Of a DNA stretch of 64,000 nucleotides, positions 5,870 through 63,139 are shown in pieces. Every line of letters starts with the position of its first letter. Within the stretch, counting starts at the first letter, position 1. Source of the stretch: Candidatus Nomurabacteria bacterium (GTDB taxonomy: Bacteria > Patescibacteriota > Minisyncoccia > Phycocordibacterales > UBA9973); assembly GCA_943356675.1 (NCBI GenBank), contig CALRFQ010000001.1, forward strand, positions 4,147 to 68,146. The letters are read 5' to 3'. Below the pieces are notes generated by a model. The model was not told the origin of the DNA and searched no databases. It worked only from the letters and a program-made list of their open reading frames with translations. The translations under genes and the position numbers were made by a program.

Positions 5870-6796
5870 TTAACTTACACTTGCCATACCGGCACTAATT
5901 TCTGATATCTCCTGCGTGATCGACGCTTGGCGGGCTTTGTTGAATGCTAAGGTGAGGTCGTCTATCATTTCTCCTGCGGCTTCCGAGGCGTTCTTCATGG
6001 CTACCATTCGGGACGATTGTTCAGAAGCATTTGATTCAAGGAGCATTTGATAAATCTGCATTCGGGATAATTTCTCAGCTAAGCTTCCGATGAGTGCCTC
6101 TTGGTCGCCTTCGAAGGTGTAATCCGTTTTCCCTCTCTGGATAGAGGTCGAACCTCTATCTTCAGATAGAGGTTCGACCTCTATCTCTTCCACCAATTCT
6201 TTAATTTGCTCTTTTGATATTGGTAGGATTTGTTTGATATTTGGCTTTTGTGATAGAGCGGAAACGAAGTCGGTGTATGCTATTAAAATTTTATCGTATT
6301 TATTTTCTTTGTATTGGTCTACTACGAATTTCGATATCGGGACCACATCATTTAGATTTATATTGTCCGGCAATTCGGTGAATGTAGCAATGATATTCTT
6401 CCCTATTCTTCTCATTGCTGTGTCACCTTTCTTTCCGACTGTGACAAAATCAATTTTTGCATTATTTAAATTTACATCTGATGTTTTAAGGAGTGCCAAA
6501 ACCTTTTTTGTTACTTGCGCATTGTATGCTCCACAAAGTCCGCGGTTTGAAGTGATGAGGACAAGGAGCACATTTTTTACTTCGCGTTGAACGAATAGTG
6601 GATGTGTAATTTCCTGTGTACTATTTGCAATAGAAGTAAGAATCTCCCAAGAGTATCCAGCATATAGGCGGGATGCAAGTGTGGAAGAAACCGCGCGCTT
6701 CATCTTGGAAGCCGCCACGAGCTCCATAGCTTTCGTGATCTTTTTCGTGTTCTTCACACTCTTTATTCTTCTTTTGATTTCTTTTGTTCCTGCCAT
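5870..6796 (-). CDS. atpG: F0F1 ATP synthase gamma subunit (contains in-frame palindromic insertion)
   Basis: 308 aa; MAGTKEIKRRIKSVKNTKKITKAMELVAASKMKRA N-terminus and C-terminal SRMVAMKNASEAAGEMIDDLTLAFNKARQASITQEISEI. Confidence 0.9.
   Translation of the reverse strand: MAGTKEIKRRIKSVKNTKKITKAMELVAASKMKRAVSSTLASRLYAGYSWEILTSIANSTQEITHPLFVQREVKNVLLVLITSNRGLCGAYNAQVTKKVLALLKTSDVNLNNAKIDFVTVGKKGDTAMRRIGKNIIATFTELPDNINLNDVVPISKFVVDQYKENKYDKILIAYTDFVSALSQKPNIKQILPISKEQIKELVEEIEVEPLSEDRGSTSIQRGKTDYTFEGDQEALIGSLAEKLSRMQIYQMLLESNASEQSSRMVAMKNASEAAGEMIDDLTLAFNKARQASITQEISEISAGMASVS
6140..6185. repeat. 46-bp perfect palindromic unit (21 nt, TTCA, reverse complement of the 21 nt) in-frame inside atpG
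   Basis: GATAGAGGTCGAACCTCTATC TTCA GATAGAGGTTCGACCTCTATC. Confidence 0.8.
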
Positions 6797-12807: not shown

Positions 12808-12852
12808 AAAATAAAAAAAATACACTAACAGAAATGTTAGGGTATTTTTTTA
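12808..12852. terminator. bidirectional terminator between convergent genes
   Basis: A-run, CTAACA-GAAA-TGTTAG hairpin, T-run. Confidence 0.4.
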
Positions 12853-13824
12853 TTCCTCGTCTTCGGCTTCGCCTACGACTCCTGATGACATTGCGTCGAG
12901 GATTTTATCGATTTTGCCAGACATAATTCCGGGGATGTTGGACCATGATTGGCGGATACGGTGATCTGTAACGCGGTCTTGTGGGAAGTTGTATGTGCGA
13001 ATCTTCTCACTTCTATCCCCCGTTCCTATTTGGCCTTTGCGATCTGCAGAATATTTCTTGGCTTCTTCTTCATCCTTTAAGACTTGTAATTTTGCCATAA
13101 GGATAATCATAGCTTGCTCGCGGTTCCCAAGCTGGTTTCTCTCTGTAGTACATCTCACATCTATGCCTGTGGGTTTGTGGATAAGGCGCACTGCTGTCTC
13201 CACCTTGTTCACGTTCTGTCCGCCTGCACCTCCTGCTCGAGAATATTCCATATCAATATCAGCCGGATTGATTTCAATTTTAGATTTCTTACGGAGTGGA
13301 AGAATTGCCACTGATGCAGTGGATGTATGTATGCGCCCGTTCTTCTCAGTAGCGGGAATTCTCTGCACACGGTGCACGCCAGTCTCATATCGAAGTAGTT
13401 TATACACATCCTTACCTCTAATTTCAAAAGATGCTTCTTTGTATCCACCCACTTCATTCATAGATTCGTTTAAGGTTTTCGAAGACCAGCCCTTAGCTTC
13501 AGCATATAGCTCATACATATGTGCGAGCTCGTATGCGAAGAGTGACGCTTCGTCGCCTCCTGCACCAGCGCGAACTTCTAGAATTATTTCATTTGGAAAT
13601 TCTTCCTCCTCTTTTTCAGACTTTTGCATTTCTTCAATTTGGCGCTCCAAGCCTTCTTTTTGGAAAGTAATATTCTGAAGTTCTTCCACAGCGAGCTCTT
13701 TCATGCTCTCATCTTCTGCCACCATATCATTAATCTTCTTTTCTTCAGACAAAAGACGCTCGTATTCATTTGCGAGGTAGCTTGTCTTGTGATTCTTTTT
13801 TAATTCTTCTAAATCGAAGTTCAT
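12850..13824 (-). CDS. prfA: peptide chain release factor 1
   Basis: 324 aa; GGQ motif ([12 protein letters not shown]) and PAT tripeptide (RF1-type PxT). Confidence 0.9.
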
Positions 13825-13891
13825 ATATTTATTCTACCTCACCCCCTACCCCCTCTCCAAATTTTTCAAATTTAGCGAGGGGAAAAAGAAA

Positions 13892-14034
13892 ATCCCAAAT
13901 TAGTTCTTAAGAAATGCCTTGCGCAGAAGCTTAGAAAATAAATGAGGTAGTCTGATTACTATTTTCTTGAGCGACGAGCAGAGAAATTTTCTAAAAAGAA
14001 AATATTCGTGCATTTCGAGAGAAGCTAATTGGGA
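13892..14034. repeat. intercistronic inverted-repeat element, divergent member of the ATCCCRTTAG family (between rpmE and prfA)
   Basis: Arms AAAATCCCAAATTAGTTCTtaaGAAATGC (13889..13918) and GCATTTCGAGAGAAGCTAATTGGGATTTT (14009..14037), about 27/30 complementary. Confidence 0.6.
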
Positions 14035-14042
14035 TTTTATAG

Positions 14043-14261
14043 CTATTTTTTAGTTTTAGTGCCGGCTGCTGCGCGCTTCTTGAAGCGGTCCACACGTCCT
14101 GCTGTGTCGAGGACCTTTTCGTTACCAGTATAGAATGGGTGGCATTGACTGCAGATTTCCACAGCGATTGTATCCATAGTTGAACCAACAGTAAATTTCG
14201 CTCCACATGCGCAAGTGATAGCTGATGCTAAGTTGTATTTTGGGTGTATTTCTTTCTTCAT
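14043..14261 (-). CDS. rpmE: 50S ribosomal protein L31 (Zn-ribbon type)
   Basis: 72 aa; MKKEIHPKY start, CxC...CxxC cysteines. Confidence 0.85.
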
Positions 14262-14285
14262 AAAAGCTATATTAGCACAGGTTTA

Positions 14286-42770: not shown

Positions 42771-43661
42771 ATGGTAGATTCAATAATTAATACAAAGAAA
42801 ATTGAAGACGCAGATGTAGTGATACTCTCTGCAGCATATGAGAAGACTGCATCTTCTAGGAAAGGCACAGCGACTGGCCCAAAAGCAATTATTAAAATGC
42901 TCACCAGCAAGCTTGAGCTTTTCGATCGTAACTACAAGAAGAATGTATCAGAGTTTGTAAAAATTGCCGAGAAAGATTCTGGAAATATTAGCGTCCTAAC
43001 TCCAAAGAAAGCTCTAGATAAAATTACAGCGGAATCAAGAAAGATTTTAGAGAAAAATAAATTCGTTTTCCTTCTTGGTGGCGAGCACTCAGTATCTCTC
43101 GGATTGCTAACTGCACTTAAAGAAAATTGGGATCCAAAGGATGTGACAGTGTTACAAATAGACGCGCACTGCGACCTACGCAATGACGACTCTGATTATA
43201 ACGATGACCCTACAAATTTGGCCCATTCTTGCGTTCTAAGACGTGTAAACGAGCTTGGCTACCCTCTCGTACAAGTTGGAATTCGCACATACTACAAGGG
43301 AGAATATGAATACTTCTCAAATCCAAAGAATAATGTAAAAACATTTGAATGGGGCGCTGGTAAAAAGGTGCCATCGGTGGACGAAGTCTTGAAATCTATA
43401 AAGACAAAGAATGTATATATCACTATAGACGTGGACGGCTTCGACCCTGCCTATATGCCAGGCACTGGCACACCAGTGCAAGGAGGCCTAGAGTGGTGGT
43501 ACGGAGTAGAACTCATCGAGAAAGTAATAAAATCAAAGAACTTAATCGGCGCAGATATCGTAGAAGTGGCTCCACAAAAAGAATCAGTCCTTACTGAATA
43601 CGGCGCCGCTCAGCTTCTTTACACTATGATTGCTCACAAATTTCGAAATAAACTTAAATAG
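42771..43661 (+). CDS. speB: agmatinase (ureohydrolase family)
   Basis: 296 aa; GGEHS, DAHCD, IDVDGFDPAYMPGTGTP Mn-binding motifs. Confidence 0.8.
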   Translation: MVDSIINTKKIEDADVVILSAAYEKTASSRKGTATGPKAIIKMLTSKLELFDRNYKKNVSEFVKIAEKDSGNISVLTPKKALDKITAESRKILEKNKFVFLLGGEHSVSLGLLTALKENWDPKDVTVLQIDAHCDLRNDDSDYNDDPTNLAHSCVLRRVNELGYPLVQVGIRTYYKGEYEYFSNPKNNVKTFEWGAGKKVPSVDEVLKSIKTKNVYITIDVDGFDPAYMPGTGTPVQGGLEWWYGVELIEKVIKSKNLIGADIVEVAPQKESVLTEYGAAQLLYTMIAHKFRNKLK

Positions 43662-43667
43662 AAATAA

Positions 43668-43707
43668 TAAAATCCCACATGTCATACATGTGGGATTTTA
43701 TTATTTT
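43668..43707. terminator. bidirectional rho-independent terminator
   Basis: AAAATCCCACATGT-CATA-CATGTGGGATTTT perfect 11-bp stem. Confidence 0.7.
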
Positions 43708-43710
43708 ATA

Positions 43711-44730
43711 TTAAGCTGAGTATTTTTCGATTAGTTTATTTGCTTCTGCGGGATTTGCTTTCATTTCAAGTAGTGCTGTGAGCATAAGAGGCACAACGAT
43801 TGTGGCATCGGACTCCACGACGAACATTGGAGTGTCTTTTGTGAGCTTGTCCCAAGTGATCTTTTCATTTGGAGTAGCACCTGAGTATGATCCGTATGAA
43901 GTAGTTGAGTCTGAAATCTGACAGAAGTATGCCCAAGGCTTAACTTCTTGCTCCATATCGTATTTAAGTGATGGCACTACGCATATTGGGAAGTCTCCAG
44001 CGATACCTCCACCGATTTGGAAGAAGCCAATTCCCTCTCCCTCAGAAAGCTTTTGGTATTGGTCATAAAATTCTCCCATGTATTCGATACCACTCTTTGC
44101 GATAGAAGCTGATGCATCTCCATGCTTTACGTGAGATGCGAAAATGTTTCCAAATGTTGAGTCTTCATATCCTGGAACTACTATTGGTATGTTGTTCTCA
44201 GCTGCAGCAAGTAGCCAGCATTCTTCTGCTTTACCTTCATGCTTATCTTTATCGATAGCTTGAATCAAGTCATAGAAGTACTCATGCCAGAATTTGCGAG
44301 TGCCATTCTTTGTAGCTTCTTCCCAAACTGGCACAATGTGTTTCTCCACAGCGCGGAAAGCTTCATCTTCAGGGATACTTGTGTCTGTAACGCGGCGCAT
44401 ACGATTCTCGAGTATCTTTGTGTCATCCTCTTTTGTGAAGTATCTGTAATCTGGAAAATCTTTGTATGAATCATGAGCAACGAGGCGGAAAAGTGATTCC
44501 TCAAGGTTCGCACCTGTGACAGACATACCACTGATAAGTCCTGCGCGGATAGCTGGGGCAAGCACGATACCAAGCTGTGCAGAAGACATAGCTCCAGCTA
44601 CCGCCCAAAACATCTTGCCTCCTTTTTCTGCATGGCGCCAGTAAGCGATAAGCGCATCGCGAGTAGCACGAGCATTGAAGTTCTTGTAATTTTTTAATAT
44701 AAATTCTAATGTGTTTAAATTATTTTGCAT
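43711..44730 (-). CDS. deoxyhypusine synthase-like protein (possible homospermidine/spermidine-forming aminobutyl transferase)
   Basis: 339 aa; N-terminal Rossmann region MFWAVAGAMSSAQLG...MSVTGANLEESLF aligns with the DHS-family TSNLISSGLR...VTTAGGVEED. Confidence 0.65.
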   Translation of the reverse strand: MQNNLNTLEFILKNYKNFNARATRDALIAYWRHAEKGGKMFWAVAGAMSSAQLGIVLAPAIRAGLISGMSVTGANLEESLFRLVAHDSYKDFPDYRYFTKEDDTKILENRMRRVTDTSIPEDEAFRAVEKHIVPVWEEATKNGTRKFWHEYFYDLIQAIDKDKHEGKAEECWLLAAAENNIPIVVPGYEDSTFGNIFASHVKHGDASASIAKSGIEYMGEFYDQYQKLSEGEGIGFFQIGGGIAGDFPICVVPSLKYDMEQEVKPWAYFCQISDSTTSYGSYSGATPNEKITWDKLTKDTPMFVVESDATIVVPLMLTALLEMKANPAEANKLIEKYSA

Positions 44731-61948: not shown

Positions 61949-63139
61949 CTATTTTACCACACCACCACCCAAGCAAATATCTTTATCGTATAGAACCACT
62001 GATTGCCCGCTTGCAAGTGCACCATCTGGCTTTTCAAATTTAATTTTTATTTCGTTTCCATTAACTTCAAGAATTTCAACTTTAAGAATTTCGCCATGGT
62101 AGCGAACTTGTGCTAAATATTTTTGCCCAATTTTAATATTTCCACGAATAACGGCATTTGTAAGTGTGACAAATTCATTATTTTTTTTATTTAAATCTTT
62201 ATCATGTGACACAATAAGGGTATTGTTATTTATATCTTTGGCCACGATGTAGTAAGGTGTATCGTTTGGTGTGGTCTTTATGATAGTAAATCCATGTCTT
62301 TCACCAAGTGTGTATAAGAGGACTCCATCGTGAGTGCCTATCTCTTCCCCATCCTCTGTTACCACATTTCCACTGCGCACATTTATGTAATGCTTAAGGA
62401 AGTCCTTCATATCAAGTGGGCCGAGGAAGCACACACCTTGCGAATCTTTCTTTGTAGCTGTCGGTAGATTATATTTTTCTGCCAATTTCCGTACTTCACT
62501 TTTTTTCATATGACCAATAGGAAAAAGTGTATGGGAAAGATCTTCTTCTGTAAGTGTCCAGAGAAAATATGATTGATCTTTTGTAGTATCTTGTGAGCGG
62601 AAAAGAAAATAGTTTTTCGATGCCTCCGCAGGCGCGTAGCTTGGTGTCGTCAAGAGTACTTCTCTTGACGACGAAGCGCCGAGGACTAAGCGAGGACTCC
62701 GCAGGAGCGGCTGAGCGGGCTGAGAAGAATTATTTTCTTTTCCGCTCACAACAGCATAGTGCCCAGTGGCAATAAAATCTGCACCATGCTCTTTTGCAAA
62801 TTTCCAAAAGACACCAAATTTCACTTCGCGATTACACATTACATCAGGATTTGGAGTGCGTCCTTCTTTATATTCTCTTATCATATAATCCGCCACGCCA
62901 CGCTTGTATGCATCTTCTGCATCACACTCAAGGAATGGCACATCTAGTGCTGCACACACCCTCATAGCATCACGCCTTTCATCTTTCCAAGTGCATTCTA
63001 TAAAGTCTGGAGTCCAAGTACGAATAAACACACCGACTACATTGTAGCCAGCTTCTTTAAGAATCGCTAAAGAGACAGAGCTATCAACCCCACCCGAGAC
63101 TCCTACAAATACAGTTTTATTTATCACTTTTCTCTTCAC
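61949..63139 (-). CDS. mnmA: tRNA-specific 2-thiouridylase MnmA (contains in-frame GC-rich palindromic insertion)
   Basis: 396 aa; PP-loop SGGVDSS, catalytic Cys (CNREVKF, GVCFLG), DQSYFL motif. Confidence 0.85.
   Translation of the reverse strand: MKRKVINKTVFVGVSGGVDSSVSLAILKEAGYNVVGVFIRTWTPDFIECTWKDERRDAMRVCAALDVPFLECDAEDAYKRGVADYMIREYKEGRTPNPDVMCNREVKFGVFWKFAKEHGADFIATGHYAVVSGKENNSSQPAQPLLRSPRLVLGASSSREVLLTTPSYAPAEASKNYFLFRSQDTTKDQSYFLWTLTEEDLSHTLFPIGHMKKSEVRKLAEKYNLPTATKKDSQGVCFLGPLDMKDFLKHYINVRSGNVVTEDGEEIGTHDGVLLYTLGERHGFTIIKTTPNDTPYYIVAKDINNNTLIVSHDKDLNKKNNEFVTLTNAVIRGNIKIGQKYLAQVRYHGEILKVEILEVNGNEIKIKFEKPDGALASGQSVVLYDKDICLGGGVVK
62595..62747. repeat. 153-bp GC-rich palindromic element inserted in-frame in mnmA
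   Basis: 24-bp terminal IRs GAGCGGAAAAGAAAATAgTTtTTC / GAAgAAtTATTTTCTTTTCCGCTC. Internal perfect palindrome GTCGTCAAGAG-TACT-CTCTTGACGAC. About 60% GC against about 35% background. Both strands translate to SGKEN...SSR(E)VLL(L)TT...KNYFLFRSQ. Confidence 0.8.

Follow-up and report, generated by a model that had tools for sequence, protein, structure and literature searches.

A GC-rich hairpin segment read in frame within mnmA of a Candidatus Nomurabacteria bacterium: a probable selfish module comparable to Rickettsia palindromic elements

The mnmA gene and its in-frame segment

We analysed a stretch of 64,000 nucleotides (the window) from a Candidatus Nomurabacteria bacterium (contig CALRFQ010000001.1, positions 4,147 to 68,146 of the forward strand), in which a GC-rich palindromic segment lies within mnmA, the gene for tRNA 2-thiouridine(34) synthase. 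This gene occupies 61949..63139 on the minus strand and encodes 396 residues, as judged from the list of open reading frames (ORFs) and from Pfam and PDB matches: the product has the tRNA_Me_trans HUP, PRC-barrel and C-terminal domains (Pfam, E 1.6e-70) and matches solved MnmA structures at E 1.8e-77 (PDB). The whole hairpin segment, 62591..62751 (161 bp), consists of an AT-rich outer stem, a GC-rich core and a central hairpin, and is the strongest long inverted repeat of the window. We regard it as probably a non-autonomous, hairpin-forming selfish DNA module, here called family A, that works like a Rickettsia palindromic element (RPE) or a MITE (miniature inverted-repeat transposable element); the RPE-like reading is supported for the element class and plausible for the family A core itself.

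A first-pass annotation of this DNA had proposed a palindromic, GC-enriched segment in frame in mnmA, and the ORF and Pfam analyses of the minus-strand gene bear this out. Its 24-bp inverted repeat with two mismatches is correct, and the repeat is better still when drawn as 21 perfect base pairs (62591-62611 / 62731-62751, part of the outer stem) within inverted-repeat arms of 45 nt at 80%. The GC-rich core, or family A module (62612..62730, minus strand, 119 bp), translates as NSSQPAQPLLRSPRLVLGASSSREVLLTTPSYAPAEASKN, and the portion of it conserved in distant carriers is 62615-62707. The GC content is 58.8% in the core and 53.6% over 62595-62747, compared with 38.4% in the remainder of mnmA, so that the enrichment is real but had been overstated as about 60% against about 35%. 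The central stem, GTCGTCAAGAG-TACTT-CTCTTGACGAC (62646..62672), has 11 perfect base pairs where zero would be expected by chance; its two sides had been read correctly, but the loop is the five nucleotides TACTT and not TACT. The sequence CTCCGCAGG is repeated, as proposed, with one copy at 62624..62632 and another at 62697..62705, each inside a 19-nt direct repeat (D1; 62618-62636 and 62691-62709). Folded as RNA, 62591-62751 reaches -73.3 kcal/mol (z -7.5, 0/200 shuffles as stable), and folded as DNA -49.5 kcal/mol (z -8.7, 0 shuffles as stable). Examination of the element sequence revealed no promoter- or terminator-like signals, and no Rfam family reaches or approaches threshold with family A or with the sister module B/C described below.

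Each strand of the segment has one stop-free frame, of which mnmA reads one; the opposite strand is open, as had been claimed, but the two strands do not encode near-identical peptides. Only 24/53 positions match (9/38 in the core), identity is restricted to the terminal arms, and the idea of symmetric coding from an overall palindrome holds for the arms and fails for the core. The spacer between the ATGHY and KDQSYFL motifs is as long as had been proposed, at 58 residues; solved MnmAs have 19-20 here and the shortest of the close relatives 14-15. The insert adds about 43 residues to MnmA. The alignment to solved MnmA is continuous save for query residues 137-177, which lie opposite a 3-residue stretch. 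In an AlphaFold model of the window MnmA built on 55 homologues the enzyme is confident, and residues 134-175, between short strands 130-133 and 177-180, have predicted local distance difference test (pLDDT) scores of 25-32. The model places the insert at the tip of a surface β-hairpin in the PP-loop domain, where it is predicted to form a disordered loop of about 40 residues that the enzyme appears to tolerate. All inserts found in mnmA, and those found in tgt (see below), keep the frame and are free of stops, which suggests that the insert is translated; peptides such as LVLGASSSR and EVLLTTPSYAPAEASK are predicted from this translation.

Mobile GC-rich palindromic hairpins are known from the AT-rich genomes of fungal mitochondria, where GC clusters, double-hairpin elements and "byp" elements can sit within protein-coding genes; byps are skipped by the ribosome, so the frame need not be kept. 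The mnmA segment resembles GC-cluster and byp elements in being a GC-rich hairpin inside a protein-coding gene of an AT-rich genome, and one could accordingly envision that it is never translated, either through programmed bypassing (of the yeast mitochondrial byp or T4 gene 60 type) or through removal as an intron or intein. However, bypassed or spliced inserts would be under no constraint to preserve the frame, whereas every mnmA and tgt insert, in both orientations, keeps the frame, lacks stops and is read in the one open frame of its strand; moreover, matching take-off and landing codons are absent, as are intein motifs and any intron or ribozyme match in Rfam, and we find this explanation extremely doubtful. 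The probability of an assembly or chimeric artefact is vanishingly small: the identical 396-aa protein with identical element DNA is present in at least five independent assemblies (Logan, NCBI, ENA), which excludes a mis-join, and close variants of the element are present in further samples.

Distribution, turnover and conservation of the family A core

The family A module, about 115-130 bp of GC-rich DNA, is part of a class of modules that are gained or lost cleanly between near-identical orthologues and decay by internal deletion. The family A peptide is carried by the window protein, P0001, P0002, P0011 and P0012, and in diverged form by P0014. At the DNA level, the core is 97% identical over 135 nt to locus L006 and 93.5% identical over 93 nt to L008, L009 and L012. 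The MnmA proteins of the window and L008 are 70% identical, while their core DNA is 87% identical, with 84% identity at core third codon positions as against 46% for those of the gene overall. Because identity drops to 46% and 67% in the flanks right outside the core, the similarity is confined to the element, and we rejected a broad recombination tract as its source.

The clearest case of turnover is that of P0028, which is identical to the carrier P0011 at 342/352 residues (97%) and from which the 45-residue insert is cleanly absent, the kind of 40-50-residue indel that the first-pass annotation had anticipated from an alignment of orthologues; P0012 (89%) has the insert. Four proteins that are 83% identical to the window protein (P0003-P0006) retain only APAEAS, which corresponds in the DNA of L007 to the last 18 nt of the module and is a deletion remnant of family A. 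On the MnmA tree the six carriers need at least five gains or losses; this and the other tree-based count below come from a single-protein neighbour-joining tree with the insert masked, and are a rough guide only. Within the family A stems, seven pairs have double changes, among them a compensatory C:G to U:A change in the central stem of L008 and L010 (alignment columns 92/114). Two further proteins, P0008 and P0010, were considered as carriers of a reversed family A; DNA alignment rejected this, as they carry a different small hairpin.

An insertion hot-spot in MnmA orthologues

One codon position of mnmA is a hot-spot in Nomurabacteria/Paceibacteria-like Patescibacteria, occupied by many different modules. 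We surveyed 116 close MnmA homologues, of which the named ones are annotated as Nomurabacteria or Paceibacterota, and found that the TGHY-KDQSYF spacer spans 14-18 residues in 15/116 and at least 28 residues in 79/116. Several peptide families are recognisable among the expanded sites, the insert types are scattered across the MnmA tree, and P0020, P0047 and P0093 have composite inserts. A filled and an empty allele were also found for another module, in that P0035 and P0036 are 94.7% identical and differ by a clean 23-aa indel. Short direct repeats stand beside some copies (CTGAAA in L013 vs L014; NF..NF in P0011 vs P0028), and a VFVGV..VFVGV direct repeat brackets a second, N-terminal insert; these repeats are equally compatible with microhomology-mediated deletion.

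That second insert, also in frame and GC-rich, is 69 bp long (L008:1752-1820, and L010) and lies at the mnmA N-terminus of the P0011/P0012 lineage, directly before the PP-loop motif (VFVGV[TPKQRVLATGQAGGDKPLVFVGV]SGGVDSS). It is bordered by a diverged 15-bp direct repeat, is cleanly missing from the 97% identical P0028, and shares with the window element the 10-mer AAGAGTACTT, which there lies in the loop region. In the P0012 genome, L010:971-1333, some 9 kb upstream of mnmA, is a gene with 23S_rRNA_IVP and weak bAvd Pfam matches. At the insert-free site of L019 (3001-4062, the mnmA gene of P0023), the codons for TKNNFLF form a perfect palindrome of AT (11+11), AAACAAAAAAT-A-ATTTTTTGTTT; this may be a target that the modules prefer or the footprint of an excision. 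Finally, P0013 and P0024 (L013 and L014) are about 93% identical over residues 1-240 and far more divergent in the C-terminal third, a mosaic that indicates recombination between lineages within mnmA.

A dispersed sister module in both orientations

Two of the peptide families at the mnmA site, B and C, derive from one module, here called B/C: the family B insert translates, when reverse-complemented, to the family C peptide, and in DNA alignments the L017 insert (C) matches those of L013 and L018 (B) in reverse complement only. The module has two 100% identical blocks, AGCGACGGGTGGGGGCGTGCCGT and ATGGGGTTAAGGAGCTT, around a variable hairpin. A metagenome scan with one of these blocks returned 24 loci, of which 16 are mnmA genes with the module in both orientations, two are tgt genes with the module in frame, one per orientation (Pfam TGT, E 1e-129 and 1e-138), and three are rnpA-yidC spacers on near-identical contigs; the other three, like the sole viral-contig match to B/C, are chance matches in DNA of 65-71% GC. 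The ends of the module (AAAATAGTTTT..GA and ..GAGAAAAGCTATTTT) are conserved in the mnmA, tgt and spacer contexts. Because it occurs in both orientations and in mnmA, tgt and a spacer, B/C is a dispersed element of the RPE or MITE kind; its orientation has switched at least 10 times among 32 carriers on the MnmA tree. The TGT site, with a base state of 30 residues and expansions up to 99, carries modules also seen in mnmA.

The hairpin of B/C is preserved among its copies: across 17 of them, 95.5% of cells are paired, where column shuffles give 79% and slid partners 42-55%, and double changes are found in 20/34 pairs. The stems covary, the blocks that are predicted to be unpaired are 100% conserved, and the outer stems vary from copy to copy yet remain complementary.

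Several observations concern the tgt copies. The tgt gene of L027 (contig Ga0209211_10000343) has a further insert elsewhere, at ORF residues ~137-165 (PEPLLRKEGRNSSRPAKGEWPEAEGVGS), that is similar to the insert in the mnmA gene of P0102 (GRKNFSPPAKGEMPEAEEV). A second shared segment goes with the B/C module in both L027 and L031, and these two tgt genes have the entire composite in opposite orientations. Both genes with in-frame B/C copies (loci L020-L043) encode enzymes of tRNA wobble position 34, for s2U34 in the case of mnmA and queuosine-34 in that of tgt; given that only one scan was made, this coincidence may be due to sampling.

Alternatively, the mnmA insertion could be resident, vertically inherited and immobile, with a hairpin selected for a function at the DNA or RNA level (such as an mRNA structure modulating translation or stability, or a protein-binding site) and a patchy distribution produced by repeated loss. 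Such an account would be in keeping with the confinement of the family A core to mnmA, with the far greater conservation of its silent sites than of those of the gene, with the compensatory changes in its stems and with the L007 remnant, which shows that loss happens; the invariant unpaired blocks and covarying stems of B/C are also as in functional structured nucleic acids. However, sister modules at the same site that occur in both orientations, in other genes and in spacers are hard to square with an mRNA function tied to mnmA, the clean absence from a 97% identical orthologue and the number of gains and losses on the tree indicate rapid turnover, and neither an Rfam match nor a promoter or terminator signal was found. 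We consider a resident functional hairpin unlikely, although it deserves to be taken seriously.

Origin of the terminal arms

The perfect 21-bp repeat of the window is a derived feature. The gene-downstream arm (62591..62611, minus strand) consists of native mnmA codons, (N)YFLFRSQ, and not of element DNA; the sister L006 has these codons too (96% identity there), and their orthologous counterparts are NNFLMRS in P0028, which has no insert, and NNFLFKG in P0023. The gene-upstream arm (62731..62751, minus strand; codons VVSGKEN) is the exact reverse complement of 62591-62611. It is present in the window and P0001 only; L006 (92% amino acid identity) and the outgroups L008 and L010 have AQNI or AQNM instead, and the stretch is 46% identical to L008, whose own terminal arms are imperfect and about 16-20 bp long. 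Comparison of these orthologues shows that only the window/P0001 sub-lineage has, as its upstream arm, this inverted copy of the downstream one, and that the perfect arms are not the termini of the element.

In the window sub-lineage the downstream flank, in exact reverse complement, has taken the place of about 30 nt of coding sequence upstream, an overwrite that points to template switching. Under quasipalindrome correction (the Ripley model of template switching), an imperfect hairpin has one of its arms rewritten in a single step as the complement of the other. Such hairpin-templated strand switching fits both the upstream arm of the window and the apparent "covariation" of outer stems, and the same process would give one-step "compensatory" changes in the outer stems of B/C; it is, however, a mutational process that involves no element, and it covers the arms but not where the GC-rich cores came from or how they spread.

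One could extend this process to the entire palindrome and envision that it arose locally, by repeated fold-back template-switch errors at AT-rich quasi-palindromic turn codons, with no mobile element involved and with the "families" as divergent products of such errors. The inverted copy of native downstream codons in the window, the 11+11 palindrome already present at the insert-free L019 site, and the outer stems that differ between copies yet stay complementary would all be accommodated. Nevertheless, a core of 59% GC has no source in a flanking gene of 38% GC and is not an inverted duplication of mnmA, and the family A core is 87-93% identical, with sharp boundaries, in mnmA genes that share 70% amino acid identity. 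Furthermore, identical B/C cores are found at unrelated loci, so that local origin can explain the arms but not the core, and as an account of the whole segment we judge it decidedly improbable.

Other hairpins in the window

A covariance model of B/C found no copy in the window; it did find two further intergenic elements, in L035 and L038, whose ends are similar and whose core is of a third kind (family H). Besides the mnmA segment, the window contains another hairpin of that architectural class, which is family H-like, at 13881..14050 in the spacer between rpmE (14048-14263, minus strand) and prfA (12850-13824, minus strand). It folds at -49.3 kcal/mol with arms AAAATCCCAAATTAG / CTAATTGGGATTTT, and its right half aligns with intergenic L035:7250-7382, upstream of mnmA, with a score of 51 (shuffle mean 18, maximum 28). 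The first-pass annotation had placed GGAAAAGAAAAT beside this element as well; the exact sequence occurs only at the mnmA element, and the rpmE-prfA spacer has the one-mismatch form GAAAAAGAAAAT at 13882. When the 64 kb were searched with end motifs derived from the other families, for a left-end match followed by a right-end match 60-170 nt on (window start to window start), exactly two places were returned, the mnmA element and the rpmE-prfA element, compared with 0.25 in shuffled windows.

Two other repeats were seen. Inside atpG (5870-6796, minus strand), positions 6140-6185 hold two tandem 21-nt perfect hairpins, GATAGAGGTCGAACCTCTATC and GATAGAGGTTCGACCTCTATC, in frame; they correspond to about 19 extra residues (EEIEVEPLSEDRGSTSIQR) of the ATP synthase gamma subunit that solved gamma chains lack, and their sequence type differs from that of the mnmA element. 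Between the convergent ORFs 42771..43661 (plus strand) and 43711..44730 (minus strand) is an inverted repeat of 30 nt, at 43653-43715, with 87% complementarity and a loop of 3 nt, which is probably a bidirectional terminator.

Discussion

The proposal that the mnmA segment is an RPE-like selfish and frame-neutral insertion is upheld by our results for the element class, whereas the family A core has been seen in mnmA only and in one orientation. We infer that family A moves by the route of B/C, with transposition or recombination machinery and a target preference to match. A number of observations weigh against this. The core always occupies the same mnmA site in the same orientation, and the invariant 21-mer of its central hairpin is present in 2 genomes only, both times in mnmA, among 185,579 species represented by one genome each. 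A search of 120 TGT homologues and 339 kb of related DNA gave no copy of the core in either orientation. An exhaustive HMMER scan with the 40-aa insert, against a 50%-representative library that can hide carriers, returned only the spurious P0121, a eukaryotic retroelement protein with tandem SSSREVGLTFPAHFYHQ repeats. The likeness of family A to B/C amounts to 16 AT-rich nucleotides, partly host-derived; pairwise alignments of family A with family H are not significant; and matches of single termini to the consensus ends of B/C and H are not significant individually. The window shows no clear target-site duplication, and no transposase or recombinase was identified, none having been noticed near copies in the fetched loci, where no systematic search was made. 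Finally, recurrence at one site could reflect in-situ evolution combined with homologous recombination, as mosaic mnmA genes exist.

An ungapped motif search did not detect the end-motif matches to B/C and H, two family A blocks had no match in viral-contig scans, and a search of a word-indexed protein database with the insert peptide was uninformative, as known carriers were not retrieved either. The absence of other copies, which the first-pass annotation held to speak against a selfish insertion, so far describes the family A core but not the sister module B/C, which is dispersed.

The nearest parallel is with the RPEs, reportedly described by Ogata et al. in 2000 and 2002. The literature describes RPEs as interspersed palindromes of 100-150 bp, in several families, that reside in coding and non-coding DNA and in frame in unrelated genes, with 728 copies in the R. 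felis genome of roughly 1.5 Mb (PMC1779305, PMC1166351, PMC10969869). The modules described here are like RPEs in being palindromic, in belonging to several families, in residing in a reduced genome and in frame in housekeeping genes, where they encode a family-specific peptide, and in sitting where the host protein tolerates insertion (in mnmA, the loop of the AlphaFold model). The mnmA element itself has the size and hairpin, the in-frame family-specific peptide and the permissive surface position of the class. As for residence in both coding and non-coding DNA, B/C is found in mnmA, tgt and the rnpA-yidC spacer and family H in intergenic DNA (L035, L038 and the window), while family A is found in mnmA only. 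Unlike RPEs, the present modules belong to a patescibacterial host, those of the window have GC-rich cores in an AT-rich genome, and their density there is low (2 elements in 64 kb, against the 728 copies of R. felis); in addition, one codon position is heavily reused by many families in both orientations, the stems reach into host coding sequence, and the family A core is so far confined to one gene. The mnmA element is not a member of the RPE families (RPE-1 to RPE-10), from which phylum, GC-rich core and density set it apart and with which no sequence homology is expected.

Prokaryotic MITEs, too, can form in-frame fusions, as with intragenic ERIC, BOX and cyanobacterial MITEs (reviewed in PMC10969869). 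They share with the present modules their short length, non-autonomy, hairpin formation, terminal inverted repeats, occasional in-frame insertion into ORFs and presence/absence polymorphism. The differences are that neither a clear target-site duplication nor a parent insertion sequence or transposase sharing the ends was identified here (the search for transposases not having been systematic), that in-frame residence at the mnmA and tgt sites is the rule rather than the exception, and that one arm of the perfect 21-bp terminal repeat in the window is host sequence. Repetitive extragenic palindromic (REP) sequences and bacterial interspersed mosaic elements (BIMEs), which are mobilised by REP-associated tyrosine transposases (RAYTs), are extragenic palindromes of 20-40 bp with a GTAG/CGTC tag; the mnmA element is 4-5 times longer and intragenic, and has no terminal GTAG/CGTC tetranucleotide. 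Full-text searches of the searchable literature found no description of such elements in Patescibacteria, in line with the earlier statement that they are uncharacterised in genomes of the candidate phyla radiation (CPR), and RPE-like elements in this phylum are apparently undescribed so far.

Under the selfish-module reading, one can envision the following course of events. A non-autonomous hairpin module would enter AT-rich quasi-palindromic DNA coding for a surface turn, candidate targets being quasi-palindromes of the AAAAT/ATTTT type, which are typical of Lys/Asn-Phe/Leu turns. In an essential gene, only insertions that use the single open frame of either strand would survive, and this would account for the same peptide per orientation in mnmA and tgt. 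The product would be a tolerated, disordered loop rich in Ser, Pro, Ala and Arg. Template switching could then preserve the hairpin and lengthen it into host coding sequence, while deletion between short direct repeats would remove modules and leave remnants, and new modules may land in or replace older ones, as the composite inserts would suggest.

It is also conceivable, although rather improbable, that the modules form a site-specific system of hairpin cassettes that a dedicated recombinase or host factor inserts, inverts and swaps at hot-spots. The invariant blocks predicted to be unpaired between covarying helices, together with the preference for mnmA and tgt in the gathered data, leave this reading open; if true, the system would diversify or regulate enzymes that modify the wobble position (34) of tRNA.

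Protein-coding palindromes have hitherto been regarded as peculiar to Rickettsia and a small number of further genomes, and the modules described here would be an analogous but unrelated system in the ultra-small genomes of Patescibacteria. The system has features that make it tractable: reused codon positions in mnmA and tgt, occupation in both orientations, filled and empty alleles at 95-97% identity, remnants, and hairpin-templated rewriting of the flanks. For annotation, it implies that an element can be the source of length variation of 20-70 residues among CPR orthologues, and of local GC spikes, which need not be errors. More broadly, the finding bears on how selfish DNA persists in streamlined genomes and on the origin of disordered surface loops in essential enzymes.

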